From Escherichia phage vB_EcoM_Schickermooser: DNA of 64,000 nt. The translations under genes and the position numbers were made by a program. The notes beneath the pieces were generated by a model. It saw nothing but the letters and a program-made list of their open reading frames with translations, ran no database searches and was not told the DNA's origin. Positions 3,141-30,211 of this stretch are shown here, piece by piece. The stretch is from sequence record NC_048196.1, one strand, 5' to 3'. The stretch's first letter is position 1; the number at the start of each line of letters is the position of its first letter.

Positions 3141-5165
3141 ATGAATTTAACAAGACCTAATAGTGCGATAGCCGATCTGGTAGAAGCTACTTATCGAAAA
3201 CGTCGCAGCTTTGAGGCAGGTTTTACATTACGTAATTCCCGTGAAGTTTTGCTGTTAGCAGCAGAAGGGAATTATTACCAATGGAAAGGAACTTTTCCTA
3301 AAGTGGTTCCAGCAAACTCTACGCCAGCCACCACAGGTGGTATTTCTTCCCTTGCATGGCAAAGTGTTGGGACCGCTGATGATATAGCAATTATCAATGC
3401 CAAGTTTACGGCAATGCAGCAACAAATTGATGATCTGTCGGAAACAATACCTGAAGCTGGTAAATCGGCTTATCAGATCGCACTTGATAATGGTTTTGTT
3501 GGAACAGAAGCACAGTGGCTTGCCTCTTTGAAAGGGGATACTGGTGCTCAACTTAATATTAAAGGATCATTAGCAAGTACTAGTGAACTACCATCCACAG
3601 GTAACGTTGCAGGGGATGGTTATATCGTAGGTGATGTAATCTACGCTTGGGATGGTTCTGTTTGGAAACTTATTTCTTCTCTTGGGCCAGAAGGTAAATC
3701 AGCTTACGAGGTATGGTTGGCAGATGGTAATACAGGATCTGTTTATGATTTCCTTACCTCTATAAAAGGTGATAAAGGCGATGTTGGTCCTACAGGGCCA
3801 CAGGGAGCACCTGGTGTTAACGCCAACGGTTTTGATTATCGTGGAGATTTGCCTTCTACAAGTAACTTACCACAACCTAACTCTGAAAACGTAAGCCAAG
3901 CTTATTCTATCAATGGAAATCTTTATGTCTCTAATGGGACAGCTTGGGTCAACATGGGTAATATTGTTGGTCCTCAAGGTCCACAAGGTGAGGCAGGTAA
4001 AGACGGTCTAGATGGAACAGATGGAGATGAAGGGAAATCTGCATATCAAAGTTGGCTGGATGCTGGTAATGAAGGGACAGAAGTAGATTTTATTGCCTCG
4101 CTTAAAGGTCCAAAAGGAGACAAGGGTGATCAAGGAGAGCAAGGTCCACAAGGTGAATTAGGTCCACAAGGACCAGTAGGTGCAACAGGATCAGGCTTAG
4201 AGATTATCGGGGTTCTGAACAGCGAAGCTGAACTTCCTCCGACTGGAGAAGTAGGTGACGCATATAAAATTAATAATGATTTATATGTTTGGGTCCAAGA
4301 TGCTACGGAATGGATGAATGTTGGCAGTCTTGGAGGAACATCAATTACAGCTAAAGGTCATGTTCCGAACAGTGAAGCTCTCCCTGTTTACAATAACTAT
4401 GGTGATGCTTACTTAACTGAAGACACTAGTAATCTTTACATCTATACCTACGATCAAGACACCAATTCCGCATCTTTTGTTGACATGGGAAGTATTAAAG
4501 GCGACAAAGGTGAAAAAGGGGATAAAGGAGATAAGGGTGATCCTGGAACAAACGGAACCAACGGTACTGATGGGACCAACGGTAAGGATGGCGCACAGTG
4601 GTTTGTAGCAACAACTAATCCAGTCACAGGAGACGGTGTTATCAATGATTACGCCTTCAATACTACCACTGGAGCAGTATTTAAGAAAACAGATTCTTCT
4701 ACGTGGACACTTATAGGAACTCTTCCTAGTATACCAGAAGCCCCTCAAGACGGCTTGACGTATGGTCGTTCTGATGGAAACTGGATCGAACTATCAGGAT
4801 CAGATCCTACGGAAGCTATAACACCAACTAGAGTTACAGCAGGTTTCATGGAACTTGAAACAACTACTGCCAACTCTGGAGCATCTTGGACTCCTTCTGG
4901 AACTTCCAATATGTATGTTGTTACAGTAACTGACGCTCTGACAGTTGGAGCATGGCCTGGTGTCACTGGCTCTACAAAACCTAAAGCGTTTTCAGCAATG
5001 ATTTATTTGATTCAAGATACAACGGGACACACGGTTACACTAGATGCGTCTTATGGAGCACTAAATGATACAGAAATAGCAACTACTGCTAACGCAGTAA
5101 CAATTTTGCAATTAACGTATCCTGGTGTGGGTGATATCGTGGACATGGTTGTTGTAACACGATAA
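3141..5165 (+). CDS. collagen-like repeat tail fibre protein (674 aa)
   Basis: Four G-X-Y tracts (e.g. GDKGDVGPTGPQGAPG, GPQGPQGEAGKDGLDGTDGDEG, GPKGDKGDQGEQGPQGELGPQGPVGATG, GDKGEKGDKGDKGDPGTNGTNGTDGTNGKDG), each preceded by a repeated GKSAY(Q/E)xWL module; RBS GGAGAG upstream. Confidence 0.8.
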   Translation: MNLTRPNSAIADLVEATYRKRRSFEAGFTLRNSREVLLLAAEGNYYQWKGTFPKVVPANSTPATTGGISSLAWQSVGTADDIAIINAKFTAMQQQIDDLSETIPEAGKSAYQIALDNGFVGTEAQWLASLKGDTGAQLNIKGSLASTSELPSTGNVAGDGYIVGDVIYAWDGSVWKLISSLGPEGKSAYEVWLADGNTGSVYDFLTSIKGDKGDVGPTGPQGAPGVNANGFDYRGDLPSTSNLPQPNSENVSQAYSINGNLYVSNGTAWVNMGNIVGPQGPQGEAGKDGLDGTDGDEGKSAYQSWLDAGNEGTEVDFIASLKGPKGDKGDQGEQGPQGELGPQGPVGATGSGLEIIGVLNSEAELPPTGEVGDAYKINNDLYVWVQDATEWMNVGSLGGTSITAKGHVPNSEALPVYNNYGDAYLTEDTSNLYIYTYDQDTNSASFVDMGSIKGDKGEKGDKGDKGDPGTNGTNGTDGTNGKDGAQWFVATTNPVTGDGVINDYAFNTTTGAVFKKTDSSTWTLIGTLPSIPEAPQDGLTYGRSDGNWIELSGSDPTEAITPTRVTAGFMELETTTANSGASWTPSGTSNMYVVTVTDALTVGAWPGVTGSTKPKAFSAMIYLIQDTTGHTVTLDASYGALNDTEIATTANAVTILQLTYPGVGDIVDMVVVTR

Positions 5166-16228: not shown

Positions 16229-16507
16229 TTAAAATGGTTCGTTAGTCTCCATCATATATTCTGCTTCTAGTTCTTCCATATGCTTTCTAAATTGGAAAGC
16301 AATTTCTGCTACAGTTACATTTAAATCTTTTTCAAAAACTTCTGTAGAGCCTTCATAAAAACGAATACCGTCAATTAAAAGCCCTCCGTGGTAATCCCAA
16401 TCACTTTCACGAGAAAGCGGGTTAGGCTCTTCATAATAGTAATCCACCTCCACGACTAAAGCTTTCCCGTTACGAGTGGTGTATTCAAAATCAAAAGTGT
16501 TAATCAT
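16229..16507 (-). CDS. hypothetical protein (92 aa)
   Basis: ORF in gene train; start abuts downstream gene. Confidence 0.5.
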   Translation of the reverse strand: MINTFDFEYTTRNGKALVVEVDYYYEEPNPLSRESDWDYHGGLLIDGIRFYEGSTEVFEKDLNVTVAEIAFQFRKHMEELEAEYMMETNEPF

Positions 16508-17451
16508 TATAGCTCCTCAAATAAAAGTCTACGACGCTCATTCAACACATCAATGTGATAATGAGTCCTGACATACTTAGCTAATGCTAATCCTTTCTCC
16601 ATGCAAACATCGGGAGCACTTAATAAGTATTCCGTAATATCTTTCCACTCGGAAGGTGTTTCAGCAAAGAATAACAAATCTTTAAACTCTTGTGTATGAT
16701 AATTCTCACGAGGAGAACAGATCAAAGGTAAACCCTTAGCACCTGCCTCAAGAATTTTAAGATTGCTTTTTGCATTATTAAACACGTTATCAATCAATGG
16801 CGCAAGACTGATTTGATGACCATCGTAAGATTCCATGTAGTTGGCATATGGTCTTACACCTTCATAAACACAAGTTGGTGCTACATTTTCTCTGATTACA
16901 GACCATTCACGACTACTTAAAACTTCAGAATCCCTACGAAAACCACATATTGTAAGATCTTTACCAAAATCGGGCAAGATAGCCAAATCTTGTTTATGTG
17001 TTTCACTTCCAGCCCAGACTAATGGAGTTTTGGAGTAGCGATCACGGGTCAACACAAATTGACCTTCCTCGTAAGGAAGTCCATTAGGGATTATGTGCAC
17101 ATTATCATTGTATTGTGAAAGTTCAACTTGCAAGGCAGGTGTCGTAGTTGTAACAAGATCACTGTGCTCTAAAAACCATTTTAAATGTTCACGAATACCT
17201 GATTCAAAAATACCTTCTAACATGTGTCCTTTTGGAATAACTAAAGAGTCATCCAAATCCATAACCATTTTAAAGCCTAGGTTTTTAAGGGCTAAAAAGC
17301 CCTCTTTACCTTTTGTTGGCACTCCGTTAAAAACGAAAACGTTGTGTTTAGGTTGTGAAGAGAACTGCCTTGAGTAAGGCAGCACTACCCTATGGAAATC
17401 GCAGACACTATAATTGATTCCGTTACGATTGTCAAGAATTATTTGTCCCAT
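16507..17451 (-). CDS. GT-B fold glycosyltransferase-like protein, paralog 1 (314 aa)
   Basis: C-terminal KSNLKILEAGAKGLPLICS resembles the GT1/GT4 motif (LEA.A.G.P.I); paralogous to 17459..18445. Confidence 0.45.
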   Translation of the reverse strand: MGQIILDNRNGINYSVCDFHRVVLPYSRQFSSQPKHNVFVFNGVPTKGKEGFLALKNLGFKMVMDLDDSLVIPKGHMLEGIFESGIREHLKWFLEHSDLVTTTTPALQVELSQYNDNVHIIPNGLPYEEGQFVLTRDRYSKTPLVWAGSETHKQDLAILPDFGKDLTICGFRRDSEVLSSREWSVIRENVAPTCVYEGVRPYANYMESYDGHQISLAPLIDNVFNNAKSNLKILEAGAKGLPLICSPRENYHTQEFKDLLFFAETPSEWKDITEYLLSAPDVCMEKGLALAKYVRTHYHIDVLNERRRLLFEEL

Positions 17452-17458
17452 ACTTCAC

Positions 17459-18445
17459 CTACAAACTTTCAATAACCTGGCGTCGCAATTCGTTTGCATC
17501 TGCCAGATTATAATGTGTTCGAACATGTTCCGCTAAGAACAAGCCGCGATCTTCCCGATAGTTCGGATTGCGAAGAAGCTTAACAATTTCGTAATGCCAT
17601 TCTGCTTTATTCTCTGCATAAGCAACAGCGCGAGCATCTACAGGGTTAAAATAAGGTAATACCTTAGAACAAACAATCGGAATACCTTTTGCCCCAGCTT
17701 CAAGGATTTTGAGATTACTTTTACAATTATTAAAATCATTATCTACCAAAGGAGCTATAGCAATAGCATGACTTTCGTAAACACTCATGTAATTATCTAA
17801 ATCTTTTACAGCAGCTTTATATTTGGCATTTGGTAAATTTCTACGGATCTTAATCCACTCTTGCCCTGTGATACTCTGCGAAGCTTCATACCCCGCAATA
17901 GTAAGAAGTTCATCATCAAAAGTGTTAGAGACTAGTCGTAAATCAGGTTCATGACTAGCACCTCCAGCCCATACAATAGGGGTACCGGATGAACGGTCAT
18001 TTGACAAAGTAAATTGTCCGCTATCAAAAGGAAGTGCATTTCGGATTACAACAACATTTCTATTTAAATGACGGATTTTATATGCCAAATATTCCGTAGT
18101 CACAATGACCACATCAGCAAGCTTAACCATAGCCACAATAGCGTGAGTGTTTGACTCATATAAACTTGCTAAATAATGTTCTGGATTAAGTTGGTAGAAA
18201 TCATCTAAATCTACAACAATCTTAACACCTTGACGTTTCAGGGACAGAACATATTCTGCACCTTTAGAATGAATACGGTTAAACACGACAACATCTTTCT
18301 TAGGCTGAAAATTATTGTTGTTAAATGGTATAACAATACGATGATAATCACAACCGCTGTGAGGTTTTGCATCAATTTTCAGTTTAGTCCATTTTTTATT
18401 TGACATGTGCCAGTGCCTCCTCATAAGAAATTCGGATTTTCCCAT
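17459..18445 (-). CDS. GT-B fold glycosyltransferase-like protein, paralog 2 (328 aa)
   Basis: Shares KSNLKILEAGAKGIPIVCS, PIVWAG and other blocks with 16507..17451. Confidence 0.45.
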   Translation of the reverse strand: MGKSEFLMRRHWHMSNKKWTKLKIDAKPHSGCDYHRIVIPFNNNNFQPKKDVVVFNRIHSKGAEYVLSLKRQGVKIVVDLDDFYQLNPEHYLASLYESNTHAIVAMVKLADVVIVTTEYLAYKIRHLNRNVVVIRNALPFDSGQFTLSNDRSSGTPIVWAGGASHEPDLRLVSNTFDDELLTIAGYEASQSITGQEWIKIRRNLPNAKYKAAVKDLDNYMSVYESHAIAIAPLVDNDFNNCKSNLKILEAGAKGIPIVCSKVLPYFNPVDARAVAYAENKAEWHYEIVKLLRNPNYREDRGLFLAEHVRTHYNLADANELRRQVIESL

Positions 18446-19079
18446 TTTTAATATCTTCTAAAGACGCTTTATATTCTTCCCAGTTAATGCCAATAGCAGC
18501 TTCTTTCTCTTCTTTTGTCAGGTTAGCAAAAGGCATAGGATTGTTTCCAAAAACATCGTCTGGGTGGATATAAGCCATGATACGAAGTGGACAAGGTATT
18601 GCCTGAATACCCTGATTCAAACCAGCAGCTTTCAAACGGTGTACCCATTCAGCATCTTCAAAACCATAGCCGTGAGTGTAAGGGCGGAAATAACCCATCT
18701 TCTCAACAACGGCACGAGAATACATTGCAAATTGACACATTGCAAGCTCCCAGAGAATAACTTCTCCTTTACTCCCAACAACTTTATCTTTGAAATACTC
18801 CGGCATACCAAAGAAATCCCATCCTCCAGAGACAGCTTGATCTACAAAATATGTTTCCCATCCCTCCATGATTGGGTAGCAATCGTCGTCAAAAATAAAC
18901 CAATAATCATAACCTTCTTCATAAAACTGGTGCATAAGTTCATTCCTGGCGTAAGCTACACCTTTACGATCTGGATCGTTGAATACTCGAAAATCTGCAT
19001 GTGGATCTGTTACAAGATAGTCTTTAAGTGGACGGACACCTACAGTGATAACACCCACTCCGATTTTAATATTTTCCAT
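18396..19079 (-). CDS. GT-A type (DxD) glycosyltransferase-like protein (227 aa)
   Basis: GVAYARNEL and WFIFDDDCYP (DxD) motifs typical of GT-A fold enzymes; 3' end overlaps next gene by about 50 nt. Confidence 0.4.
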   Translation of the reverse strand: MENIKIGVGVITVGVRPLKDYLVTDPHADFRVFNDPDRKGVAYARNELMHQFYEEGYDYWFIFDDDCYPIMEGWETYFVDQAVSGGWDFFGMPEYFKDKVVGSKGEVILWELAMCQFAMYSRAVVEKMGYFRPYTHGYGFEDAEWVHRLKAAGLNQGIQAIPCPLRIMAYIHPDDVFGNNPMPFANLTKEEKEAAIGINWEEYKASLEDIKNGKIRISYEEALAHVK

Positions 19080-19087
19080 TTTCTCTC

Positions 19088-19651
19088 CTAGATAGTTTTA
19101 CTGTGATCGTGACAGTGTAATAAATGATGTATAGACCGTTGAGGATTTGTTTGACCTAATCTGTAAATGTGAAACAGATACATTCCCCGCATCAATCCTA
19201 ACCTCTTTCCTTTTTCATGTAAAGTGCGAGAGAAAATTAAGTCGAATTGGATAGATTTTTCTTCGAAAGGAATTTCATTCCACAATGATTTTCTAAAAAG
19301 CAAAAAGAAACCTGCCAGAGGTGTTCCGAAAGGAACTTCTTCAACACTCACTTTATGATATTCTCTTGCAATCTTAGCATATTCTATATGGTTTAGAATG
19401 TCTGGATCATCGTTAATTTGGTTAGAGAAAAGCTGATAACCACTACCTAACCTGTTACAAGTTGCACCTATTACATCAAAAGGCGGGTTTGACATAACAA
19501 GCTCTTCAAGCATAGATGGTTGATCAGGTAGGAGGAACATCGTATCGGTATCTCTTAAACACACCCAACTATCATCTGGAAGAACGGCAATAGCTTCATT
19601 GATAGCCTTGCCGATATTTCCTGTCAGATAGGGAGTAATATAATAAATCAT
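19088..19651 (-). CDS. hypothetical protein, possible DxD glycosyltransferase-like (187 aa)
   Basis: N-terminal YYITPYLTGNIGKAINEAI...CLRDTDTMF with a DTD motif; weak assignment. Confidence 0.35.
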   Translation of the reverse strand: MIYYITPYLTGNIGKAINEAIAVLPDDSWVCLRDTDTMFLLPDQPSMLEELVMSNPPFDVIGATCNRLGSGYQLFSNQINDDPDILNHIEYAKIAREYHKVSVEEVPFGTPLAGFFLLFRKSLWNEIPFEEKSIQFDLIFSRTLHEKGKRLGLMRGMYLFHIYRLGQTNPQRSIHHLLHCHDHSKTI

Positions 19652-20115: not shown

Positions 20116-20414
20116 TCTACAGCATCATGAGTCCTTGCAAAACGCTCCCACAACACAGCATCTACTTTAAGAACCATACAAGGATAAATACTGTCGTTGA
20201 TCATATCAATGCTATATTTATCTACATCCTTTTCATCTTCCATAAACAAAGTAGCGTATGCTTCCAAATGTTTACGGGTGTAGTATACGTCCTCTTCGGT
20301 AAGACCGACAACCAGGTAACTTGCTACAACAACAGTATTATCTTCTTGCATTTTAACTCCCCTTTGGTAGATAGAAACCATGCACTTTATCTCGATAAAC
20401 AAGACGCATATCAC
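20067..20414 (-). CDS. hypothetical protein (115 aa)
   Basis: ORF overlapping both neighbours; true start may be internal. Confidence 0.4.
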   Translation of the reverse strand: MICVLFIEIKCMVSIYQRGVKMQEDNTVVVASYLVVGLTEEDVYYTRKHLEAYATLFMEDEKDVDKYSIDMINDSIYPCMVLKVDAVLWERFARTHDAVECSAVMSQNNILGEIH

Positions 20415-20874
20415 GCTCCCAGTGTGTCCTTATATTCCGTTTCTTGAAGTATAGAGCACCTTTAGTAACATCTAAAACAGACCGCAATTCAGGAAAATGT
20501 TTCTCTAAATAAAGTAAACGCTCCGCTATTGCTTTTGCTTCCTGCCACTTATCTTTCTCTGTCACGTTAAAAGTTTTCGCATATGAGAATTGCCCTTTCT
20601 GGAACAAGACTCCCTTGACTGTGTTAGGGAAGTAGGCATCATTTCTTCTGTTGATTACCACATTCCCAACGGCATTCATTCCTTTTTTACCCAGACCGCG
20701 ACCTTCTGCGTAAATTGCACAAGCTAATAGAATTTTATCATTATATTGCTTTGTACATTTGTGAACTACTTTAGCGGTTTTTACGTTTGCAGCTTCGGCT
20801 TTCGCCACAACAGGTGTAAATGTAAAAGCAGTTAAGGATAGTAACGCAACTGTTACAAAGTTTTTTATCAGCAA
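20353..20874 (-). CDS. SleB-family cell wall hydrolase-like protein with N-terminal signal peptide (173 aa)
   Basis: TTG start with GGAGG RBS; hydrophobic signal-like N-terminus (VTVALLSLTAFTFTPVVAKA); central ACAIYAEGRG...VINRRND block resembles SleB-type hydrolases. Confidence 0.6.
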   Translation of the reverse strand: MLIKNFVTVALLSLTAFTFTPVVAKAEAANVKTAKVVHKCTKQYNDKILLACAIYAEGRGLGKKGMNAVGNVVINRRNDAYFPNTVKGVLFQKGQFSYAKTFNVTEKDKWQEAKAIAERLLYLEKHFPELRSVLDVTKGALYFKKRNIRTHWERDMRLVYRDKVHGFYLPKGS

Positions 20875-20906
20875 ATTTTGCCTCCTTTTTAAGTTAACGA
20901 ACTTCT

Positions 20907-20935
20907 AGTATAACACGATAGAGGCTTTATTGCAA
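20907..20935 (-). promoter_or_regulatory. sigma70-like promoter (TTGCAA-17-TATACT) for the hydrolase gene
   Basis: Minus-strand reading gives TTGCAA, 17-nt spacer, TATACT, then GGAGG RBS and the TTG start. Confidence 0.45.
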
Positions 20936-20956
20936 GAGGGGGGATTTCTCCCCCTC
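20936..20956 (-). terminator. hairpin GAGGGGG-loop-CCCCCTC downstream of TerD-like gene
   Basis: 7-bp G/C inverted repeat in the intergenic gap after stop of 20975..21577; no strong U-tract. Confidence 0.4.
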
Positions 20957-20974
20957 AAAATCATTTGTTAATTA

Positions 20975-21577
20975 TTATGGACATTCATACCATTCTTTTT
21001 TACCACCGAAGGCCATCACCACATCGCAAATATCCAGACCAGCTTTACCTACACCATATGCTTTCAGCTTCCATTCTCCATCTTCACGAACCAGGGAAGC
21101 CACGTGGCAGATTGTGTTGCCAGCTACTTCAGGAGCCAGGAAGTCAAAATCCAGAATTTCCACATTACGCTCGGAGTCGAAGATTTTAAGCATACCTTCA
21201 GAAGCATGACCAAAACGTTTCAGACCTGTATCATCATCAATAGTCAGAACAAAGGCAATCTCTTGTGCATCAGGAGAGATTTTAGCCAGAGTAATATCAA
21301 TCTGCTCCATGCTGCCAGTTCCATCACGAACATCGTCACCAGCAAAGGTAGAACGTTCAGGATCAAACTTATTAGCATAGCAAACCAGATGACGTGCAGA
21401 CAGCATTTCAGGATTGCCAGCGGCATTGTGACGACAAACCAGTGCACTTACATCCAGATCCAGTTTAGAATCAGATTTCCAAGAGAATTCCAGGCGTAGT
21501 TCTTTCAGAGCCGGAGCAACTTTCTTCAGGGAAATTTTTTCGCTAGAGCCTTTTTTCAGGGAAATTTTATCAGTCAT
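20975..21577 (-). CDS. TerD-domain protein (200 aa)
   Basis: N-terminal (K)ISLKK motifs and Ca-binding-like GDDVRDGTGSMEQIDI block as in TerD/TerE proteins; size about 190-200 aa. Confidence 0.75.
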   Translation of the reverse strand: MTDKISLKKGSSEKISLKKVAPALKELRLEFSWKSDSKLDLDVSALVCRHNAAGNPEMLSARHLVCYANKFDPERSTFAGDDVRDGTGSMEQIDITLAKISPDAQEIAFVLTIDDDTGLKRFGHASEGMLKIFDSERNVEILDFDFLAPEVAGNTICHVASLVREDGEWKLKAYGVGKAGLDICDVVMAFGGKKEWYECP

Positions 21578-21592
21578 CTTTTGTCTCCTCTA

Positions 21593-21862
21593 TTATTTAA
21601 GTGTAATACCAGTTACAGTCAATTCTACTTCCAAAAGCTTAGATGTGTTTTGGATTGCTACTAATTGTGCATGATGGTTTAGTTCTACAGCAGAATAATC
21701 ATTTTCCCCATCATCTACTTTTAAATAAACAATTACTTCACTAAGGTCTAAACCATTTTCGTCAAATGCATTTTCATAGACGAAAGTATCTCCTACATCC
21801 AAATCTTTAATGGTAAGGCATCGTTTATTTACTTTTTGCTCATCAATTTCGAAGTTTAACAC
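21593..21862 (-). CDS. hypothetical protein (89 aa), paralog of 22884..23228
   Basis: Shares DLxVGDTFxYxxAFDExGLD...VTxITLK with the 114-aa ORF. Confidence 0.5.
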   Translation of the reverse strand: MLNFEIDEQKVNKRCLTIKDLDVGDTFVYENAFDENGLDLSEVIVYLKVDDGENDYSAVELNHHAQLVAIQNTSKLLEVELTVTGITLK

Positions 21863-22091
21863 TTCTTCCTCCTAATGTTATCTCCGGTTTGTATATACGA
21901 AGAATTATAGCATTTTCATTTTCTTTGTCAACCCATTCTTCATAATCAGGCCATACATGAATCTCTACTCTACTTACAATATCTTCCATCCGCACAGTCC
22001 CAATGAAATATTCTTTGAGACTGCGCATAATGAAAGCTTCTCTCTCGCGCCAATAATTTTCTACGACTTGAGAGGCAAGCTCGTCGATCAT
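21843..22091 (-). CDS. hypothetical protein (82 aa)
   Basis: ORF overlapping both neighbours by a few codons. Confidence 0.45.
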   Translation of the reverse strand: MIDELASQVVENYWREREAFIMRSLKEYFIGTVRMEDIVSRVEIHVWPDYEEWVDKENENAIILRIYKPEITLGGRSVKLRN

Positions 22092-22882
22092 TTTTTAGCA
22101 CCTACTTTAACAACCCACTCTCCGAACTCTTCAGATAAGAGTTTGTCATAAAGCTCTGAATCTGTCAAGTCTAAATCTTTAATGCCAATAAAACCAACAT
22201 TGTCATAAGCATTTGCCAGTTCTTTCAGGAAGCTGAACTTCTCATTACCAACGCCAACCATGAACCAATAGATAGGCTTATTCTTATTCTCTTCAATAAG
22301 ACGACGAACAGCACTAGGATCACCATTCTCACCGTCTGTCTGGAAGAATACAACGCCAGGAGTAACATCAGCACCTGGTTCAGATACAGCTACAACTTTT
22401 TCACGCTCTACCGATACTGTTTCAGTTTTACCAAGCAGACGATTAAAGAAGCCTTTCTTTGGAGCCTCCTCTTGTACCACTTGTTTAGTGGTAACATATT
22501 TGGTAACAGTGCCAAAATACTCATCGTAGATATCTGCCATTACAGGGGCGTAATTTGTTCCACCTCCGATACGAACATTACGCATACATTTACCAACGTA
22601 GTCATCGTAAACGTCTGCTGTTGCTGGAGTAAGCTCTTGAGAACTCGTATTGAAGGCCCACATGTCAATTTGTTCATTATCGTCGAACAGCATACCAAAA
22701 GGAAGCAGTTTACCTACAAAATCACTCACTACCCCACGAGTATATAGACCATGCATACTACCAGAAATATCTAGAGCACATGCTACACGAAGAACAATCT
22801 TACCTTCGTTCAGGTTCTTATTCTTTTTCAGAGAGAAAGCAAGGTTTTCTTGACGTTTTTTCAGGCTGATTTTCTCGGACAT
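22088..22882 (-). CDS. von Willebrand factor A (vWA) domain protein, TerY-like (264 aa)
   Basis: MIDAS motif DISGSM after a TerD-like N-terminal KISLKK segment; sits within the Ter-like gene set. Confidence 0.7.
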   Translation of the reverse strand: MSEKISLKKRQENLAFSLKKNKNLNEGKIVLRVACALDISGSMHGLYTRGVVSDFVGKLLPFGMLFDDNEQIDMWAFNTSSQELTPATADVYDDYVGKCMRNVRIGGGTNYAPVMADIYDEYFGTVTKYVTTKQVVQEEAPKKGFFNRLLGKTETVSVEREKVVAVSEPGADVTPGVVFFQTDGENGDPSAVRRLIEENKNKPIYWFMVGVGNEKFSFLKELANAYDNVGFIGIKDLDLTDSELYDKLLSEEFGEWVVKVGAKK

Positions 22883-22883
22883 A

Positions 22884-23228
22884 TTATTTCTCCTTCTTAA
22901 GTGTAATATTGGTAACTTCTAAATCTACTTCCACCATATTTGTATCTGGTGGGATGCAATGAGTATAGCCTCGTTGTGCTAGTGATCCATTAATACAGAT
23001 CGCACTGTTTGTGGAATTTTTAATGAACACCAAGTTACGGTAGGTATCCAACCCTGCGTCTTCATAGGCATCATAATACATGAATGTGTCCCCTATGCCA
23101 AGGTCTTCGAAAGCAATAGGTAAATCCTGACACTTTTCTTCTTGAATATTGAATCTAAACACGCATACCTCCTCTACCAATTTTGAAGCCCAAATCGTAA
23201 GCTTCCTTAGTGATCTTTTGTAACTCAC
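22884..23228 (-). CDS. hypothetical protein (114 aa), paralog of 21593..21862
   Basis: Shares LGIGDTFMYYDAYEDAGLD...VTNITLK with the 89-aa ORF. Confidence 0.5.
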   Translation of the reverse strand: MSYKRSLRKLTIWASKLVEEVCVFRFNIQEEKCQDLPIAFEDLGIGDTFMYYDAYEDAGLDTYRNLVFIKNSTNSAICINGSLAQRGYTHCIPPDTNMVEVDLEVTNITLKKEK

Positions 23229-23718
23229 TTATAGGAAGTGTTACAAGAGGATCATCTTCTTCAATTTCCATCTTGTCATCTTCTGTTTCAATGAGAGTAT
23301 TATGCACTTTGTGATAAGGGTTGTCAACACGTTTAAACTTATTCTTTTCTGTGCTGAAAAAACAATCTGGATCTTCTTCGCCATCACCCCAACCTTGGTT
23401 AGGATCTCCGTCAGATTGTTCTGTAGGGATTTCACCTGTAAAATACTCTTCCAGCACCATAGCGATACCGTCCCTTGGATTCGAGGAATGCATTAAATCA
23501 CAAACCTTACCCCAATCCATAGCCCATTCGAACCGTTCACGAACGCCATTTTCATCCTCCTTTCCAGAGAAAACACAACCATAACTATCATAGTTGCCAT
23601 ACATCTCTTCAATAACAACACCATCCTTCAAAAGAAAGAGATAGCAAGGTGATCCGTCGAAAGAAGTAGAAAGGGCAGCTTTGCCCGATTCCTTACACAA
23701 AAAGCTAAAACAACCCAT
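23155..23718 (-). CDS. hypothetical acidic protein (187 aa)
   Basis: ORF with acidic Asp/Glu-rich C-terminal half; overlaps downstream ORF so start or stop may differ. Confidence 0.45.
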   Translation of the reverse strand: MGCFSFLCKESGKAALSTSFDGSPCYLFLLKDGVVIEEMYGNYDSYGCVFSGKEDENGVRERFEWAMDWGKVCDLMHSSNPRDGIAMVLEEYFTGEIPTEQSDGDPNQGWGDGEEDPDCFFSTEKNKFKRVDNPYHKVHNTLIETEDDKMEIEEDDPLVTLPISELQKITKEAYDLGFKIGRGGMRV

Positions 23719-23915
23719 TACAAACCCTCCTTCAGATTATCAAGAGCTACAGTGGTTTCACAAAATTCTCCATACGCTTTATGATGTTCTAGAAAAGCTT
23801 CAGGTCCACCCCAATCATTATCTTGTGTATTCCAACCATCAATAAAAGCATCTTCAATGATTGTGATCAGTTCCTGTCGAGTCAACGTAATGGTATCAGG
23901 TTTTGGATTATGCAT
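23718..23915 (-). CDS. hypothetical protein (65 aa)
   Basis: Small ORF in gene train. Confidence 0.4.
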   Translation of the reverse strand: MHNPKPDTITLTRQELITIIEDAFIDGWNTQDNDWGGPEAFLEHHKAYGEFCETTVALDNLKEGL

Positions 23916-24077
23916 CTTCTTTCTCCTCTAAAATATGAAACCCATAGCTACAATAGTCCTGAAAGGTTTCGTGTGCAAGATCTTCTATATCCTCTTGAGA
24001 CATATCATCTTCAATTTCGATATCCACAACCTCATTGCATCCACACCAAGCAGTTTCAATATTCACTCGTAAAGTTT

Positions 24078-24275
24078 TCATTCTTCTTCCTCATTGAAGT
24101 CAATATCTGCAAGGAGTTGAAATTTACGGAAGTTACGACAACCTTCATAAATATAACAATCACGACAAACTGCTAGAACACTTGGGGGATATATGCCTCC
24201 CATCGGTGCGAATCGTTTTTCGTCATCATAACGGACACCAATGTCTTCATCAATTATATAGATACGGATTCTCAT
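24078..24275 (-). CDS. hypothetical small Cys-containing protein (65 aa)
   Basis: Start overlaps TelA-like gene stop; CRDCYIYEGC motif. Confidence 0.4.
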   Translation of the reverse strand: MRIRIYIIDEDIGVRYDDEKRFAPMGGIYPPSVLAVCRDCYIYEGCRNFRKFQLLADIDFNEEEE

Positions 24276-25384
24276 TTACCAAGCCCTCGTTTCACAGCAG
24301 CTACCATCCCGTCTTCCAGAGATTGAACTTCATTAATATAATCAACACGAGCAGCACGGGCTTCCGTATTGATGCGGTTAGTTTCTTCCAACATCTTAAC
24401 CAAGTTTTCCTGATCGTGACGCAGAGTTTCAATATCCAACACTTGACGGTTAGCCAGTGCTGCTGCTTCGATCTGATTCTGTGTGGCAAGATCGCTACCC
24501 AGTTTAATTGCCAGGTTAAATTCATCAAGAACGTTATTCTGCGTCTCTGCTGCTTTCATTTGACGTAAGCTCTCGATATACATTGAGAAGTTAGCAGAGT
24601 AAGCAGGAATAACATTATTTACTATGTTACGCGCAGATCGCATTAAGCTTGCAGAAACTTTTTGCATACCTTGCACACGTGGTCCCATTTGGACACACAG
24701 TAGGCGCAATGCTTTTAAATCGGCAATACGAATCTCCAGAAGATCCAAAGTATCTCGGATCACTTGTCGCTGTTCTACTGCATCTTCTGGAAGAGCAGCC
24801 AAAGCTTGTTCTTCTTTTTCATAGGTTGCTGTTAGAAGCTGCATATCTCGGTTCAAACTTGCAGCATATTGTCCAATAGCTTGATGCAGTTTTTCAAGAT
24901 ATACCAAGGAATCTTCTTCTTTGCGAATATCCATTTGAAGGTTCTTTACCAACTCTTCAATACGGTTATTAACATTATCAAACTCCCCAAACAGGTCTTC
25001 TTTCATACCCATAACTTTTTTAATGAGTTTAGTAATACCTTTGCTTTGTTTAATAGAGTTTGGATCAAGTTGTTTTGCCTGTTTAATCAAAGCTGTGAGT
25101 CGTTCACTCATCTGATCGCCTTGATTACTACGTTGATGTTTTAATACCTCGGCATTCAAGGAACGCAAGGTTGTCCCTGCCTCTGCCCCGATCTCTTCGA
25201 TCTCTTGTCGGGTCATAGAAGGCAAAACTGGGACTTCTTGCGGTGCGGCTGGTGCATAAACAGGACTGGCATCTAATACGCTTGGAGCGAATACAGATTT
25301 ACTTGCATCTGTTGTTGCAGTGAATACACTCATTTCAGACTTCTTCTGACCACCAGTAGCTGCTTTTAAAAACGGACTTGTCAT
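24272..25384 (-). CDS. TelA-like (toxic anion resistance / KlaA family) protein (370 aa)
   Basis: Size, largely helical coiled-coil composition and position in a TerC/TerD/vWA neighbourhood; assignment partly contextual, no sharp motif recognised. Confidence 0.5.
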   Translation of the reverse strand: MTSPFLKAATGGQKKSEMSVFTATTDASKSVFAPSVLDASPVYAPAAPQEVPVLPSMTRQEIEEIGAEAGTTLRSLNAEVLKHQRSNQGDQMSERLTALIKQAKQLDPNSIKQSKGITKLIKKVMGMKEDLFGEFDNVNNRIEELVKNLQMDIRKEEDSLVYLEKLHQAIGQYAASLNRDMQLLTATYEKEEQALAALPEDAVEQRQVIRDTLDLLEIRIADLKALRLLCVQMGPRVQGMQKVSASLMRSARNIVNNVIPAYSANFSMYIESLRQMKAAETQNNVLDEFNLAIKLGSDLATQNQIEAAALANRQVLDIETLRHDQENLVKMLEETNRINTEARAARVDYINEVQSLEDGMVAAVKRGLGK

Positions 25385-25971
25385 TCTTCATTCTCCTCTT
25401 CTGCATCTCTTATGTATGGTGAAACACCGTATTCTTTAGCTACTTTAACCCAATCGTCCCATTTATACAACCATAATTTTCCTTCTGTTCCTTCTTTATC
25501 TGATTTTAACCACATATTAGGTTGCTTACCTGGATACATGCGATTAGGTTTACGATTATACCCTCTAACACATCTTGTCGCAAACCTATCCACCAAAACA
25601 AGAACATATTTATATTCATGGTTCAACGGCTCTTTGGAAGTAGCTTTAGGGTTTGCCCCTAATTCTGCTGCCAGTTTTTGCCAATGAGCACCGTGCCGAC
25701 TAAACTTACCCATACAACCATCAATAGCATGAGCAATTTCGTGCTTCATTGTATCCACGATCATATCTCTTGTAGAGTTCTTATGCAAGTGCCAATTTAC
25801 AACAACAATTTTATCTCGGTAGTTGCACCAACCGAAAGAGTTATTCACTTTGTTTCTAACGCAAGCTTTATATCCTGCTTCACGTAACATGTTGTAGTAA
25901 ACAGGAAAATCTTCTTTTATTTCCTGCATCACTTCCCACCACAAGAGTTGCAAGTCTCTCTCGGTATACAT
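25381..25971 (-). CDS. SprT-like zinc metallopeptidase-domain protein (196 aa)
   Basis: HExxH motif in MKHEIAHAIDGCMGKFSRHGAHWQKLAAELG, resembling SprT-like domains. Confidence 0.55.
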   Translation of the reverse strand: MYTERDLQLLWWEVMQEIKEDFPVYYNMLREAGYKACVRNKVNNSFGWCNYRDKIVVVNWHLHKNSTRDMIVDTMKHEIAHAIDGCMGKFSRHGAHWQKLAAELGANPKATSKEPLNHEYKYVLVLVDRFATRCVRGYNRKPNRMYPGKQPNMWLKSDKEGTEGKLWLYKWDDWVKVAKEYGVSPYIRDAEEENEE

Positions 25972-25974
25972 AAC

Positions 25975-26568
25975 TTACACCTTAAAAGTGAAATGCGTGG
26001 TCGTGGCTTCAAAATCAGGGCCAGATAAACGTGCACTGAAATCTGAAATATTTGTAATTAAAAAGCTTTTATGCATACCCAACACAGCCACGCTTTCAAT
26101 ATCTTCTACTAACATTTCAATCATGTTAGAAACATGGCTGAACGTAGTGTTTTGTTTTTTGATGGTGTAGAAAGAAAGATTCCCACCTGCTGTATAAGAT
26201 ACTTCTTCAAAATCTTTAATCGTATACTGTGTCCCATCAGTAAAGAAAATGGTAGCTTTATTAGTAGCACGTTTCTTGTTTTTTGGTCCTTTTTTACGTT
26301 TACTGCGAGTAGGAAAACCATTTGGGAATACCGTAGCTACAAATTCTTCAGGAGAAACCTCCTTACCGAAATCATAACCATAAGAAACAGCATCTATAAA
26401 CTCATCGTCCTCATTTTTAAAATAATGGAAATAGGGCCAATTTGAAAGATTATCAAGCATCTTATGCTCGTCCACAGCAGAGAATGTATCCCTCAAAGCG
26501 CGTGTGATTTGCAAAGCATTAGGCAACCTTTTAACACCTACGATGGAAGTACGAATAGAAATTGTCAT
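25975..26568 (-). CDS. hypothetical protein (197 aa)
   Basis: ORF in gene train. Confidence 0.5.
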   Translation of the reverse strand: MTISIRTSIVGVKRLPNALQITRALRDTFSAVDEHKMLDNLSNWPYFHYFKNEDDEFIDAVSYGYDFGKEVSPEEFVATVFPNGFPTRSKRKKGPKNKKRATNKATIFFTDGTQYTIKDFEEVSYTAGGNLSFYTIKKQNTTFSHVSNMIEMLVEDIESVAVLGMHKSFLITNISDFSARLSGPDFEATTTHFTFKV

Positions 26569-26582
26569 TGTTTTTCTCCTTA

Positions 26583-27020
26583 TTAACGTCGCTTGCTACG
26601 AGATGAACTCTTTTTACTTAAAGGGCTATTGTAAGATTTACGAGTTGTATAGCTACTATTTGTTTTAAAAGTTTGTCTCGGCTTTTCATAAGTTTTTATC
26701 TCTTGTTTAGGCTTACTATAAAAATTAGTTTTCGGTTTAGGTGTGTTATAATGTTTATTAATAATCGTTCTGTTATCGTTATAATCCCCGCCGCTACGAT
26801 TACTACTACCGCTCATCATATGTCCTAACAACATACCTGTAGCAAACTCACCAACACCGCTACTACTAGAACCGCCACCATTGTTGATAATAGTTGTATC
26901 TCCGTCAGATCCTTGTTGAGCGTATTGTTGAGGAGGTTGTTGATATTGTGTAGGATTTGTTTCATCCTCGCAAGCTGTTAAAAAGATACAACCAATTAAA
27001 ATCAGGGCTAGTTTTTTCAT
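26583..27020 (-). CDS. putative lipoprotein, Gly/Ser-rich with basic C-terminus (145 aa from internal start)
   Basis: MKKLALILIGCIFLTAC... signal peptide with lipobox LTAC; RBS GAGGAAAG upstream of internal ATG at 27020; ORF track's longer start at 27095 is less likely. Confidence 0.5.
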   Translation of the reverse strand: MKKLALILIGCIFLTACEDETNPTQYQQPPQQYAQQGSDGDTTIINNGGGSSSSGVGEFATGMLLGHMMSGSSNRSGGDYNDNRTIINKHYNTPKPKTNFYSKPKQEIKTYEKPRQTFKTNSSYTTRKSYNSPLSKKSSSRSKRR

Positions 27021-27207
27021 ATTTGCTTTCCTCGTTTTGACTATTAATACATCTGTGTTTGAAATCTCCAGAGAAGCAATAAAGCTGCTCTCCATCTCGG
27101 TATAAACTCACTTTACTGCCGTTGATTACGCTTGTCAATACAAAAATTACAACAAACAACCCTATTGCAAAACAAATATTTTCAAACACAACCAACAAGT
27201 ATTTCAT
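26962..27207 (-). CDS. hypothetical small membrane protein (81 aa)
   Basis: Hydrophobic segment FAIGLFVVIFVLTSV; overlaps lipoprotein start by about 59 nt, so extent uncertain. Confidence 0.35.
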   Translation of the reverse strand: MKYLLVVFENICFAIGLFVVIFVLTSVINGSKVSLYRDGEQLYCFSGDFKHRCINSQNEESKYEKTSPDFNWLYLFNSLRG

Positions 27208-27554
27208 TTTAAAAATACCTCATCATCAGTTTCATTATCCCAGAAGAACAAATCCCAACCATTAGGATCATTCCACTTGGCGGTTGGAGAAGTCCAAATT
27301 TGTTCGATATCAATATTCAAAACTTCGCCGTTTCGTTTTGAAACAGCCTTGGTTAATTCCCAACGAGATACAGGTTCTACCTCTCCTGAACCACTCCCAC
27401 AACAAGCTACTACATTAGGAGGAAGGTTAATTGGATCTTTGGTCACAATCATAACGCTTACCCCAGGGTAAACTTTTGAAAGATAATCTGAAACGTAATC
27501 AACATCACCAGGTAAATCCCAAACAAGTTTTTGAATTTCATCGAAATTGCTCAT
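27204..27554 (-). CDS. hypothetical protein (116 aa)
   Basis: ORF in gene train. Confidence 0.5.
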   Translation of the reverse strand: MSNFDEIQKLVWDLPGDVDYVSDYLSKVYPGVSVMIVTKDPINLPPNVVACCGSGSGEVEPVSRWELTKAVSKRNGEVLNIDIEQIWTSPTAKWNDPNGWDLFFWDNETDDEVFLK

Positions 27555-27596
27555 AAGTCTCTCCTATAAAATAGCCTCCCGAAGGAGGCTCATCTA

Positions 27597-28571
27597 TTAA
27601 ACAGCAGCTTGTTCTTTTTCAGGGAAGATAAAGCTTGCAATAACACCAAGAGCTAATGTGCCTAGAACAATCATCAGACTTACGTTAGGGGAAATATCAT
27701 GCGGAAGGAATGACCACTTGGCATGAAGTGTTTCACCGAACGGGTGATACATAAGTTTAGCACCAACAAACACCAGAACCACAGCAACAGCTTTCTCTAA
27801 GTGAACCAAATATTTCACAGCTACACTTAACACAAAGAAAAGTGCACGTAAACCAAGAACAGCCATCAGCATTGCAGAATAAACTAGCAGAGGTTCTTGT
27901 GTCACACCGATCACAGCCGGAACTGAATCAAAAGAGAAGACAATATCTGTAAGCTCAATAACAAACACACAAAGAAGAGCAGGAGTTGCATATTTAATAC
28001 CATTCTTAATGGTAATGAACTTTTCACCATCCAGTGCATTGTGCACAGGCAGAACTTTACCTACTAAACGAACAGCCCAATGCTTAGAGTAATCAATATC
28101 CTCTTCTTCGTCACAACCTTTGATGATAGCCACGGCAGACCAAGCTACAATCAAACCGAACAACACTTGGACCGACCAATGAAGGTTAAACAAAGCGGTC
28201 CCTGCTGCAACAAAAATACCTCGGAAAACAATGGCTCCTGCAATCCCCCAAAGTAAAATCTTATGTTGGAGATGTGTGCTCTTAATTCCAAAGCTTGCAA
28301 AAATTGCCATGAACACCATCAGGTTATCTACAGAAAGACTCTTTTCCAACACATAGCCGCTTAGGAAAAGCGCGGCAAACTCTTTACCATGTTCTACCCA
28401 AATGAATGCGTAATATCCTAAAGCTAAAGCAATCCAAAAAACAGACCAAAGCAAAGCAGATTTAATTCCAATTTCTTTATTCTCTTTATGACCAAAGAAA
28501 TCGATACCAATAGACAATGCTAAAATACCAACTAAAACAACTACATCAATAATTGGGAAACCAAGTTGCAT
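27597..28571 (-). CDS. TerC-family integral membrane protein (324 aa)
   Basis: Multiple TM helices; hallmark TerC blocks LEKSLSVDNLMVFMAIF and ELTDIVFSFDSVPAV. Confidence 0.8.
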   Translation of the reverse strand: MQLGFPIIDVVVLVGILALSIGIDFFGHKENKEIGIKSALLWSVFWIALALGYYAFIWVEHGKEFAALFLSGYVLEKSLSVDNLMVFMAIFASFGIKSTHLQHKILLWGIAGAIVFRGIFVAAGTALFNLHWSVQVLFGLIVAWSAVAIIKGCDEEEDIDYSKHWAVRLVGKVLPVHNALDGEKFITIKNGIKYATPALLCVFVIELTDIVFSFDSVPAVIGVTQEPLLVYSAMLMAVLGLRALFFVLSVAVKYLVHLEKAVAVVLVFVGAKLMYHPFGETLHAKWSFLPHDISPNVSLMIVLGTLALGVIASFIFPEKEQAAV

Positions 28572-28650
28572 TCTTTTCTCCTCTCTTTGCGGGGAACTAT
28601 TCCCCGCTTCATGTGATATATCTTACTCTTTTTAAGAACTATGTCAACAC

Positions 28651-28872
28651 TTATTTTGTTGAATGAGAGGAAAAGATTCCTCGTAATACAGCCAGAATAA
28701 ACGAAACACAAACCACGGTCCAGAAGGTTACTGGAACAGTGATATCTGCATGACCCATAACTTCAGCAACATAGTTGTAAGCCAGCAACAGTAACCAAGC
28801 TGGAATCAAACTAAGCATAAAAGCAATAACAAAAAAGCTTACCACTGCAACAATACCTGCAAAAACACCCAT
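28651..28872 (-). CDS. small 2-TM membrane protein (73 aa)
   Basis: Two hydrophobic helices (GIVAVVSFFVIAFMLSLIPAWLLLLAY; VTFWTVVCVSFILAVL). Confidence 0.5.
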   Translation of the reverse strand: MGVFAGIVAVVSFFVIAFMLSLIPAWLLLLAYNYVAEVMGHADITVPVTFWTVVCVSFILAVLRGIFSSHSTK

Positions 28873-28884
28873 ACTAATCTCCTC

Positions 28885-29370
28885 TTAAAGTTTATAAATA
28901 GTCACATCGTGACCAGCTTTTACTAAAGTTTCTTTGATCATGACTTCAATGATAGCCCAATTACCTCCAGCATGACCTGCACCTATCATAGGTAGACCAA
29001 TCTTATGTGCTGGCTGATCTCCTTTATCGTAATTGTGTAAGTCCATTGCCATAGCTGCAAGAGCATCATACAGCGCATCATAATCTAGTTGACGACCTTT
29101 ACTATTGTATCCATAACGATACTGTCCATAAAGGTTGTATACCATAGGGTTAGGATAATCTTCTGGTTCCCCTAAACTAAAAGAACCAAGCTTTTTCTGG
29201 TTTCCTGCTCCTGTAGCTAAATCTGCTTCGTATGCATATGGAAACGCATATTTTATTTGTGGGGCAATACCTGCCCCCATATTACACATACAGTTGCAAC
29301 AATGAGCAATAACAGTTACTTCACCTGTTTTAGCGGCATCAATAAGATTACCTGTTTTCATTTTAAGCAT
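28885..29370 (-). CDS. macro-domain (ADP-ribose binding/processing) protein (161 aa from internal start)
   Basis: LIDAAKTGEVTVIAHCCNCMCNMGAGIA and IGLPMIGAGHAGGNW resemble the two Gly-rich macro-domain motifs; RBS AAGGAG upstream of ATG at 29370; ORF-track start 29445 would overlap the upstream gene. Confidence 0.5.
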   Translation of the reverse strand: MLKMKTGNLIDAAKTGEVTVIAHCCNCMCNMGAGIAPQIKYAFPYAYEADLATGAGNQKKLGSFSLGEPEDYPNPMVYNLYGQYRYGYNSKGRQLDYDALYDALAAMAMDLHNYDKGDQPAHKIGLPMIGAGHAGGNWAIIEVMIKETLVKAGHDVTIYKL

Positions 29371-29383
29371 TTTTAGCTCCTTA

Positions 29384-30211
29384 TTACAGAATGTGTTGTT
29401 TTGTGTAACGATCCAAGAATTCAAAGTTTTCAGCATACTTTGCAATTCGATTGTAGCCTTCAGCTAAACAGCCGAAGAAAAGTTGTTCCACATAGTAGTG
29501 TGGCAATTGGCTAAGAATGATTTTGAAGTCTTCATGATTTTGGCCCATAAGATACTTAATAGGACGAACAAGGCACTGTGCATCACGTTCTTCATTAATC
29601 ATTTTAACAAACGCTTCTGGTGTATTAATGTAGTTAAAATTCAGTTTAGCTTCAGTATCTGCTTGATTACCTTCGTATTTTGCAAAATACAAGAAGTAAA
29701 CATCATTTTTAACTTGATTTTCATCAAGAATCTCAATCAGTTTGTCTTCATGCGTTCCGGTGATATTTACATCATCAATGAACACCAACTTCTTATCACC
29801 CCAGAATTCTTTGTTGCAGTAGAATGTATCCCCATCAATAAGTTTCTTACGACTAGCTTTATCCAAGAAGCCATAATCGTTAATATAACTAACTTTACGA
29901 TGAATAATATCCAGTTCTGCTGAACGACCTTGATCATATTGTGCTTGCAACATATTAAAGTAATTAATAAAATGATCTGTCATCATTGTTGCAGCATTAT
30001 GCACATGGTTATAAGGAGAAGGAATGATAACAAATTGTTCCCCAATATGTTTCATTGCCACTTGAGCAAAAAACTGAAGTGCCAATTCTTTACCCATACG
30101 ACGCGCAGCTTGGTTACTGCCAAATTTCAATTTTGAATAATCTTTGATATCAAAAGTAGCAGTTTCCAGGTCATCAAATTTATTTGCAAAAATTTGAGTT
30201 TGATTACGCAT
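29384..30211 (-). CDS. phosphoribosyltransferase (PRTase)-domain protein (275 aa)
   Basis: PRPP-binding-type motif KKLVFIDDVNITGTHEDK. Confidence 0.55.
   Translation of the reverse strand: MRNQTQIFANKFDDLETATFDIKDYSKLKFGSNQAARRMGKELALQFFAQVAMKHIGEQFVIIPSPYNHVHNAATMMTDHFINYFNMLQAQYDQGRSAELDIIHRKVSYINDYGFLDKASRKKLIDGDTFYCNKEFWGDKKLVFIDDVNITGTHEDKLIEILDENQVKNDVYFLYFAKYEGNQADTEAKLNFNYINTPEAFVKMINEERDAQCLVRPIKYLMGQNHEDFKIILSQLPHYYVEQLFFGCLAEGYNRIAKYAENFEFLDRYTKQHIL

Follow-up and report, generated by a model that had tools for sequence, protein, structure and literature searches.

Two small acidic proteins of a duplicated phage family are encoded directly upstream of the vWA and TerD genes in the Ter cluster of Escherichia phage vB_EcoM_Schickermooser

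Our results indicate that two small genes of Escherichia phage vB_EcoM_Schickermooser, here called smallA and smallB, are, as judged by comparison of their sequences, anciently duplicated members of one small, phage-restricted family. One stands directly before the gene of a vWA-TerF-like protein and the other directly before that of a TerD-domain protein, and the paralogs are a lineage-specific addition to a known kind of Ter system. Membership of both proteins in a PHROG family, and the phage Ter cluster as a kind of system, were already known; the link of the family to the Ter genes, its predicted fold and its duplication appear to be new, and a literature search found no paper describing any of the three.

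The window, by which we mean the whole stretch of 64,000 nucleotides that was analysed (sequence record NC_048196.1), has as its kin the phAPEC8-like myophages of E. coli (subfamily Stephanstirmvirinae), and Phapecoctavirus genomes (KKP 3954, UP17, phAPEC8) are about 98% identical to it. Its Ter cluster is a run of minus-strand genes, with the core genes lying within 20975-30211. The core of a Ter system is co-located there, with TerD, TerC, TelA, the vWA-TerF-like protein and a PRTase all scoring above the Pfam gathering thresholds, and the vWA-TerF-like protein carries a DxSxS MIDAS motif (ALDISGSM). Among the proteins of the cluster scanned with PADLOC, the sole match was that of the Macro protein to DarG; no PADLOC model matched smallA, smallB, vWA, TerD, TelA or TerC. 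The features are, in the order of transcription:

29384-30211, minus strand: ComF-like PRTase_3 (Pfam, 143 bits)
28885-29445, minus strand: Macro/DarG-like protein (PADLOC DarG, 1.9e-9)
27597-28571, minus strand: TerC (Pfam, 137.6 bits)
25381-25971, minus strand: SprT-like protein
24272-25384, minus strand: TelA (Pfam, 115.7 bits)
Between TelA and the 187-aa ORF: three tiny ORFs
23155-23718, minus strand: 187-aa ORF, phrog_14928, no assigned function; upstream of smallA and holding its promoter-like site
23299..23327, minus strand: smallA promoter-like site, TTGACA-17-CATAAT, 11/12 consensus positions
22884-23162, minus strand: smallA, 92 aa, GTG start, phrog_11278 clade A; putative first cistron before the vWA gene
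22088-22882, minus strand: vWA-TerF-like protein, 264 aa (PF10138, 129.2 bits)
21843-22091, minus strand: 82-aa ORF, phrog_22387, no assigned function; between vWA and smallB, holding the smallB promoter-like site
21904..21931, minus strand: smallB promoter-like site, TTGACA-16-TATAAT with an extended -10 TG (TGcTATAAT), 12/12 consensus positions
21593-21862, minus strand: smallB, 89 aa, GTG start, phrog_11278 clade B; putative first cistron before TerD
20975-21577, minus strand: TerD-domain protein, 200 aa (PF02342, 98.9 bits)
20353-20874, minus strand: cell-wall hydrolase

A sequence-only reading of the window had described minus-strand ORFs at 21593..21862 and 22884..23228 as paralogs of 89 and 114 aa, and had named a pairwise alignment as the way to check this. 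Both ORFs lie where it placed them, and BLASTP aligns smallB with the 114-aa ORF without a gap (28/89 identities or 31%, 51% positives, E=1e-13), starting with residue 1 of smallB and residue 23 of the longer ORF and reaching both C-termini; the similarity is thus significant and covers the full length of the 89-aa protein. The size of 89 aa is correct. That of 114 aa is the maximal ORF, and the gene itself almost certainly starts at the GTG at 23162, giving 92 aa, because a GAGGAGG Shine-Dalgarno sequence stands 5 nt upstream of this codon, the alignment of the paralogs begins exactly there, the ESCO13 annotation has a 279-nt CDS at the same position, and the homologs are all 87-93 aa long. 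With this start, both proteins match the 92-position profile of phrog_11278 from end to end (smallA residues 1-92 on 1-92, E=1.6e-49; smallB 1-89 on 1-89, E=3.2e-44).

In comparisons with phi92 and phiWec190, the dN/dS ratio is 0.17-0.29 for smallA and 0.34 for the 82-aa ORF; for smallB, dS is saturated. The hydrophobic pattern of the family is kept down to about 25% identity. By these measures, smallA and smallB are real coding genes under purifying selection, the dN/dS evidence being that of smallA. Two other histories were considered and rejected. Duplication of a segment made up of an upstream ORF and its small gene does not agree with the 82-aa and 187-aa ORFs, which are dissimilar, as are both upstream stretches of DNA. 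As to a programmed frameshift from the 82-aa ORF into smallB, no slippery heptamer was seen in the overlap of the two, and smallB has a promoter-like site, a Shine-Dalgarno sequence and a start codon of its own.

The family, phrog_11278, carries no annotation and its members are labelled hypothetical proteins. Genome-wide tblastn of a phage collection found it in 125 phage records, and those among the matches listed and checked all belong to Stephanstirmvirinae or to unclassified near-identical relatives. Phapecoctavirus and the phiWec-like phages have two copies, and the remaining records one. Word-indexed searches returned close relatives only, and an exhaustive HMM search of 1.84 billion cluster representatives gave 36 matches, about 14 of which are true member clusters. 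These are all stand-alone proteins of 87-93 aa with neither fusions nor other domain partners, and no bacterial member was present among the 1.84 billion proteins. The other 22 of the 36 matches are proteins of 485-5697 aa, whose scores we took to be the sum of chance resemblances to a beta-strand motif (GDTF.Y). Eight such giant repeat proteins were scanned; they consist of He_PIG/Big_9, ankyrin, DUF11 or HYR repeats, which are unrelated folds, and match parts of the query only (positions 15-68 or shorter), many times over. A remote kinship of the family with the Ig-like DUF11 repeats is formally conceivable. A scan of IMG/VR with the clade-C profile found no loci, and a scan of metagenomes for further family loci found no new contig; the alignment of the whole family is too variable along its length to offer a stretch usable as a search pattern.

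Comparison with known domains was equally negative. No Pfam family was consistently matched by 18 members, even when E was allowed to reach 1; the sequences of the PDB gave no meaningful match to the family profile and no FeoA chain; and, with E allowed to reach 0.1, the TerD profile PF02342 matched neither smallA nor smallB. The pI is acidic throughout the family (4.3-5.5); D+E outnumber K+R about twofold, and the sequences show no basic patch. Conservation is highest at F4, L21, G24, F27, G37-L38-D39, A54, N58 and V83.

In every context examined, the family gene directly adjoins a vWA-TerF-like gene, a TerD gene or both. These contexts are the window, ESCO13, phi92, phiWec190, Klebsiella 05F01, Serratia KKP_3264 and PsgM04F, together with loci L005-L012, L015-L017 and L024, and the genes are arranged in them as follows:

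Small-vWA-80/82aa-small-TerD: window, ESCO13, phiWec190, PsgM04F, L010-L012, L024
187aa-small-vWA-TerD: phi92, Serratia KKP_3264
Unrelated ORF-small-vWA-TerD: Klebsiella 05F01
VWA-small-TerD: metagenomic contigs L005-L009, L017
VWA-small-small-TerD: L015, L016

The extra 90-aa ORF of L015 and L016 is a member of the family (E=3e-14) and forms an independent tandem pair. A neighbour-joining tree, indicative only with its approximately 90 columns, separates the proteins according to their place in the cluster: those before vWA form clade A, those before TerD, accompanied by the 82-aa ORF, form clade B, and those between the two genes form clade C. The four arrangements, of which small-vWA-TerD is one whatever its upstream ORF and the tandem pair another, imply that the gene was moved or duplicated several times, at least three, yet stayed inside the vWA-TerD unit. 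Adjacency in related genomes, which the earlier reading had named as a check, is kept in every context examined; it is not fully independent evidence, since all the contexts come from one syntenic lineage, that of Stephanstirmvirinae and its metagenomic relatives. The suggestion that each Ter protein has its own dedicated small partner does not hold as a general state: phi92-like phages have a copy before vWA only, a metagenomic clade carries just one copy, placed between the vWA and TerD genes, and one lineage has two tandem copies at that place. The 187-aa protein was also considered as the true partner of smallA and was rejected, given that in Klebsiella 05F01 an unrelated gene takes its slot upstream while the downstream vWA neighbour is kept.

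The position of the two genes just 5' of the vWA and TerD genes on the minus strand, noted from the sequence at the outset, is a close one. The stop codon of smallA is separated by 1 nt from the ATG of vWA, and that of smallB by 15 nt from the ATG of TerD; across the family contexts, the gap to the downstream gene is -1 to 32 nt. The AAGGAG ribosome-binding site of vWA lies inside the last codons of smallA (KKEK), and the K(K/E)EK tail of clade A is conserved because those codons encode this site. On the upstream side, the 187-aa ORF overlaps smallA by 8 nt, and the 82-aa ORF, found wherever clade B occurs, overlaps smallB by 20 nt.

In each of the three clades, the small gene is closely preceded by a promoter-like site with conserved hexamers, spacing and position; these sites are consensus matches and not mapped transcription starts. 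The -10 hexamer of the smallB site ends 42 nt upstream of the GTG of smallB; the site is kept in phiWec190 and is the single 12/12 sigma-70 site in the 64-kb window, against 0.15 expected. The -10 hexamer of the smallA site ends 137 nt upstream of the GTG of smallA, and its hexamers, spacer and position are identical in phi92, phiWec190 and Serratia KKP_3264. In the clade-C loci and L015, TTGACT-17-TATGAT or TATAAT is located within the 3' end of vWA, at a distance of about 58 nt from the small gene that follows. Where TerD is not preceded by a small gene (phi92, KKP_3264, 05F01), a promoter-like site is found directly before TerD. In the window as a whole, 14 strong sigma-70-like sites were observed, compared with 3.4 in shuffles. 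The conservation of these sites suggests that the transcription unit of vWA or TerD has the small gene as its first cistron, so that each copy shares a conserved unit, headed by a consensus promoter match, with its downstream Ter gene. Each copy would then have its own host-type (sigma-70) promoter, in the units P-smallA-vWA(TerF-like) and P-smallB-TerD, and the small protein would be made together with the Ter protein encoded after it.

The family is predicted to consist of acidic soluble proteins with a short disordered N-terminus and a small beta-barrel of SH3-like topology. An AlphaFold model of smallA built from a 15-sequence alignment has a pLDDT of 82.7 and a pTM of 0.71, with the five models at 82.0-82.7; an AF2 model from 6 sequences was poor (pLDDT 60.5) and was not used. 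In the model, residues 1-10 are disordered; a beta-barrel comes next, which includes a single short helix (residues 30-36). The independent model of the phAPEC8 89-aa protein in BFVD fits onto it with a TM of 0.81-0.83, and this paralog was also the top Foldseek match among viral models, followed by many uncharacterised small phage proteins. The Gly-Leu-Asp motif that comes after the helix may simply cap it.

We tentatively favour, at slightly less than even chances, the reading that the small proteins are non-essential accessory proteins, either adaptors or modulators, of the vWA/TerD module, acting by protein-protein contact. This would agree with a tiny stand-alone family that is found beside vWA/TerD in every context examined, with its tight coupling to these genes and with the promoter-like sites; the absences in close relatives, and a divergence much faster than that of TerD and vWA, speak against it. 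Homologs of the vWA-TerF-like protein occur in 216 phage records, against the 125 with the small family. No family member was found in the flanks of vWA/TerD in Citrobacter Tr1, Klebsiella phi1_175008, KP13-16, Caulobacter CcrPW or Pseudomonas Kremar, and Citrobacter records were absent from the genome-wide tblastn matches of the family. In KP13-16, an ORF of 110 aa stands upstream of vWA. The TerD of phi1_175008 is 86% identical to that of the window and the TerD of Tr1 81%; for vWA, the values are 67% and 68%, respectively. Judging from such identities, the Ter proteins appear not to be noticeably changed where the small genes are absent, and a role that is optional rather than essential is indicated by the lack of any copy in close relatives with similar TerD and vWA.

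On the accessory reading, one copy may have specialised for the vWA unit after the duplication and the other for the TerD unit, and both could act as stand-alone SH3-like barrels do, by contact with proteins, by analogy with FeoA. More speculatively, the nearly invariant Gly-Leu-Asp after the single helix might offer an acidic ligand to the MIDAS metal of vWA or to the Ca2+ bound by TerD. The most specific form of the idea, which we regard as unlikely, is that of an SH3-like specificity or adaptor subunit of the Ter system whose Gly-Leu-Asp would dock on the MIDAS/Ca2+ site, with the paralogs dedicated to vWA and TerD, tuning or redirecting the Ter module during infection. The N-terminal KISLKK common to vWA and TerD was considered as a docking peptide and rejected; it is also present in Tr1, KP13-16 and CcrPW, which do not have the small family, and is thus a general feature of these Ter proteins.

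The main rival to an accessory role is that of independent early phage proteins, which would act on a host factor, for instance to take over the cell or to counter its defences, and would have no contact with the Ter proteins; the adjacency to Ter genes would come from shared transcription and inherited gene order. We hold this to be possible, although rather unlikely. Between the window and phiWec190, smallB is 44% identical and TerD 91%, and smallA is 56% identical and vWA 74%; in every comparison, the small proteins are the fastest-evolving of the vWA/TerD gene group. Such fast divergence is seen more typically in proteins that have to follow a changing target than in subunits tied to a partner that is itself conserved. 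Gain and loss among close relatives with TerD and vWA visibly unchanged, the many uncharacterised small proteins of similar fold that Foldseek finds in unrelated phages, and host-type promoter-like sites, as expected for early genes, point in the same direction. However, a gene of independent function would not readily account for at least three moves or duplications that always ended within the vWA-TerD unit, for the absence of the family elsewhere, both among the 1.84 billion proteins and in the contexts retrieved, or for an upstream neighbour that is exchangeable when the Ter neighbour is not.

The sequence-only reading had proposed adaptors, chaperones or regulatory subunits. Its basis in paralogy and conserved adjacency stands, but an obligate chaperone or subunit role is unlikely, and one small protein per Ter protein is not the general rule. 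The immediate upstream position with its tight translational arrangement, and the presence in the window phage of one copy before each Ter gene, would suit obligate chaperones or stoichiometric structural subunits for the folding or assembly of the phage vWA and TerD proteins. Nevertheless, Tr1 and phi1_175008 keep TerD at 81-86% and vWA at 67-68% identity without any copy, the TerD of phi92 has no copy in front of it, and other phage Ter operons (Caulobacter, Pseudomonas) have no member of the family. To our knowledge, TerD and vWA-TerF-like domains are also widespread in bacteria without it, in line with the lack of bacterial members among the 1.84 billion proteins. Obligate subunits are therefore improbable.

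A further reading is that of nucleic-acid-binding regulators of the KOW/SH3-like type, which might, for instance, control the translation or transcription of the downstream Ter gene. Such binding is very improbable, given the acidic pI of every member (4.3-5.5) and the lack of a basic patch in the sequences, and no Pfam KOW or S1 match was obtained. That the similarity of the two ORFs is due to chance, or that they are not genes, is suggested by nothing more than their small size, and is practically negligible in view of the pairwise E=1e-13, the homologs in 125 phage records, a dN/dS well below 1, strong Shine-Dalgarno sequences and a confident and consistent fold prediction.

The immediate value of these results lies in a better annotation of approximately 125 Stephanstirmvirinae genomes, to which the corrected start of the 92-aa protein, the paralogy, the class of fold and the pairs of genes headed by promoter-like sites can be added. 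TerD and TerF-type vWA proteins are found in bacteria and in many phages, and a dispensable small protein that always travels with vWA/TerD would be a convenient experimental entry point to their role. If the docking Ter subunit proved true, the family would open a genetic route to the ligands of TerD and TerF-type vWA proteins.

Among known proteins, FeoA (with FeoB), HspQ (with Lon) and the C-terminal SH3-like domain of DtxR/IdeR are soluble beta-barrels of about 75-90 residues, as the members of the phage family are predicted to be. Stand-alone SH3-like barrels such as FeoA generally act by protein-protein contact. The phage family resembles the FeoA group in that its gene directly precedes that of the presumed partner and is closely coupled to it. 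It differs in having no sequence similarity to that group, either in Pfam, where PF04023 was unmatched by 18 members, or among PDB sequences, and in having vWA and TerD as neighbours instead of a transporter, a protease or a repressor. The C-terminal domain of ribosomal protein L2, domain I of EF-P and the KOW domains of Spt5/NusG are basic RNA-binding modules; unlike these translation-type SH3-like/KOW barrels, the family is uniformly acidic, and its sequences do not match theirs.

In phages of Caulobacter and Pseudomonas, the compact TelA-vWA-TerC-TerD operons have no small barrel gene. Phage Ter systems with TerD, TerC, TelA, a TerF-type vWA protein and a PRTase are known from jumbo phages and others (PMC7824862, citing Anantharaman et al. 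2012), and phrog_11278 is not among the Ter components given in the part of PMC7824862 consulted. The window has the same core set as the systems described there, and its Ter cluster differs in being broken up by lineage-specific small genes, the two paralogs among them.

The end of the transcription unit proposed for smallB, the copy of the small protein encoded before TerD, may be marked by a hairpin, and the same strand carries a predicted promoter of perfect consensus:

20936-20956, minus strand: G+C-rich hairpin GAGGGGG-AGAAAT-CCCCCCTC, directly past the TerD stop codon
21904-21931, minus strand: predicted sigma-70 promoter, called by consensus match (TTGACA-16-TATAAT plus extended -10 TG)

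The hairpin is followed by no run of T, and a terminator scan made no call there. The perfect sigma-70 match at 21904-21931 is the sole one across the 64-kb window, in which 14 sites match at 11 or more of the 12 positions, against about 3.4 in shuffled sequence; nearly all of these 14 have the orientation of the local genes. The predicted promoter is internal to the 82-aa ORF that lies between the vWA gene and smallB. Over the window as a whole, both the direction of the genes and the GC skew change from minus strand to plus strand at about 43 kb (window about 43000), and tRNA genes were found nowhere in its length.

In related phages, additional ORFs occur next to TerD or vWA:

phi92 (L002), 6788-7390: extra ORF (gp171) in the interval from TerD to the cell-wall hydrolase gene
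Tr1 (L019), 4042-4686: extra ORF in the same interval
phi1_175008 (L022), 4055-4669: extra ORF in the same interval
metagenomic relative (L005), 2095-2574: Band_7 (SPFH) domain gene directly after TerD
Klebsiella phage KP13-16 (L018), 2148-2480: 110-aa ORF directly upstream of vWA

The first three, of about 200-214 aa and unknown function, follow TerD in phages that have no small-protein copy before it, and the window has no ORF of this kind in that interval. The Band_7 gene, seen in this one relative, is a further membrane-associated component attached to the vWA-small-TerD unit. KP13-16 is without the family, and its 110-aa ORF, which had no significant match to the family HMM (E=5), might be an analogous protein of different sequence.

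Among the phage records retrieved with window 20900-25400, some that name Campylobacter, Acinetobacter, Klebsiella (ZCKP1) or Pseudomonas (PsgM04F) as the phage host are nearly identical to genomes of E. coli Phapecoctavirus or Justusliebigvirus; such records look doubtful in their host labels, or else the host range is very broad.

Two gene groups flank or belong to the Ter cluster:

16507-19651, minus strand: four consecutive ORFs immediately downstream of the cluster
28885-30211, minus strand: ComF-like PRTase_3 gene, then a Macro-domain protein gene, both cluster members

Three of the four downstream ORFs have glycosyltransferase Pfam matches, all sub-threshold (two GT-B-like, one TET-associated-glycosyltransferase-like). 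The 187-aa ORF at 19088-19651 (minus strand) had no match in the Pfam search, its glycosyltransferase label coming only from annotations of related phages (phi92, PsgM04F). The run could indicate modification of DNA or surface sugars.

Within the cluster, the ComF-like PRTase_3 scores 143 bits. At 20.8 bits the Macro protein falls slightly short of the 22 bits that Pfam requires, and it matches the PADLOC DarG model at 1.9e-9. With its listed TTG start (29445), the Macro ORF shares 62 nt with the PRTase gene; in ESCO13 the Macro gene is annotated at 157 aa, shorter than the ORF listed for the window.
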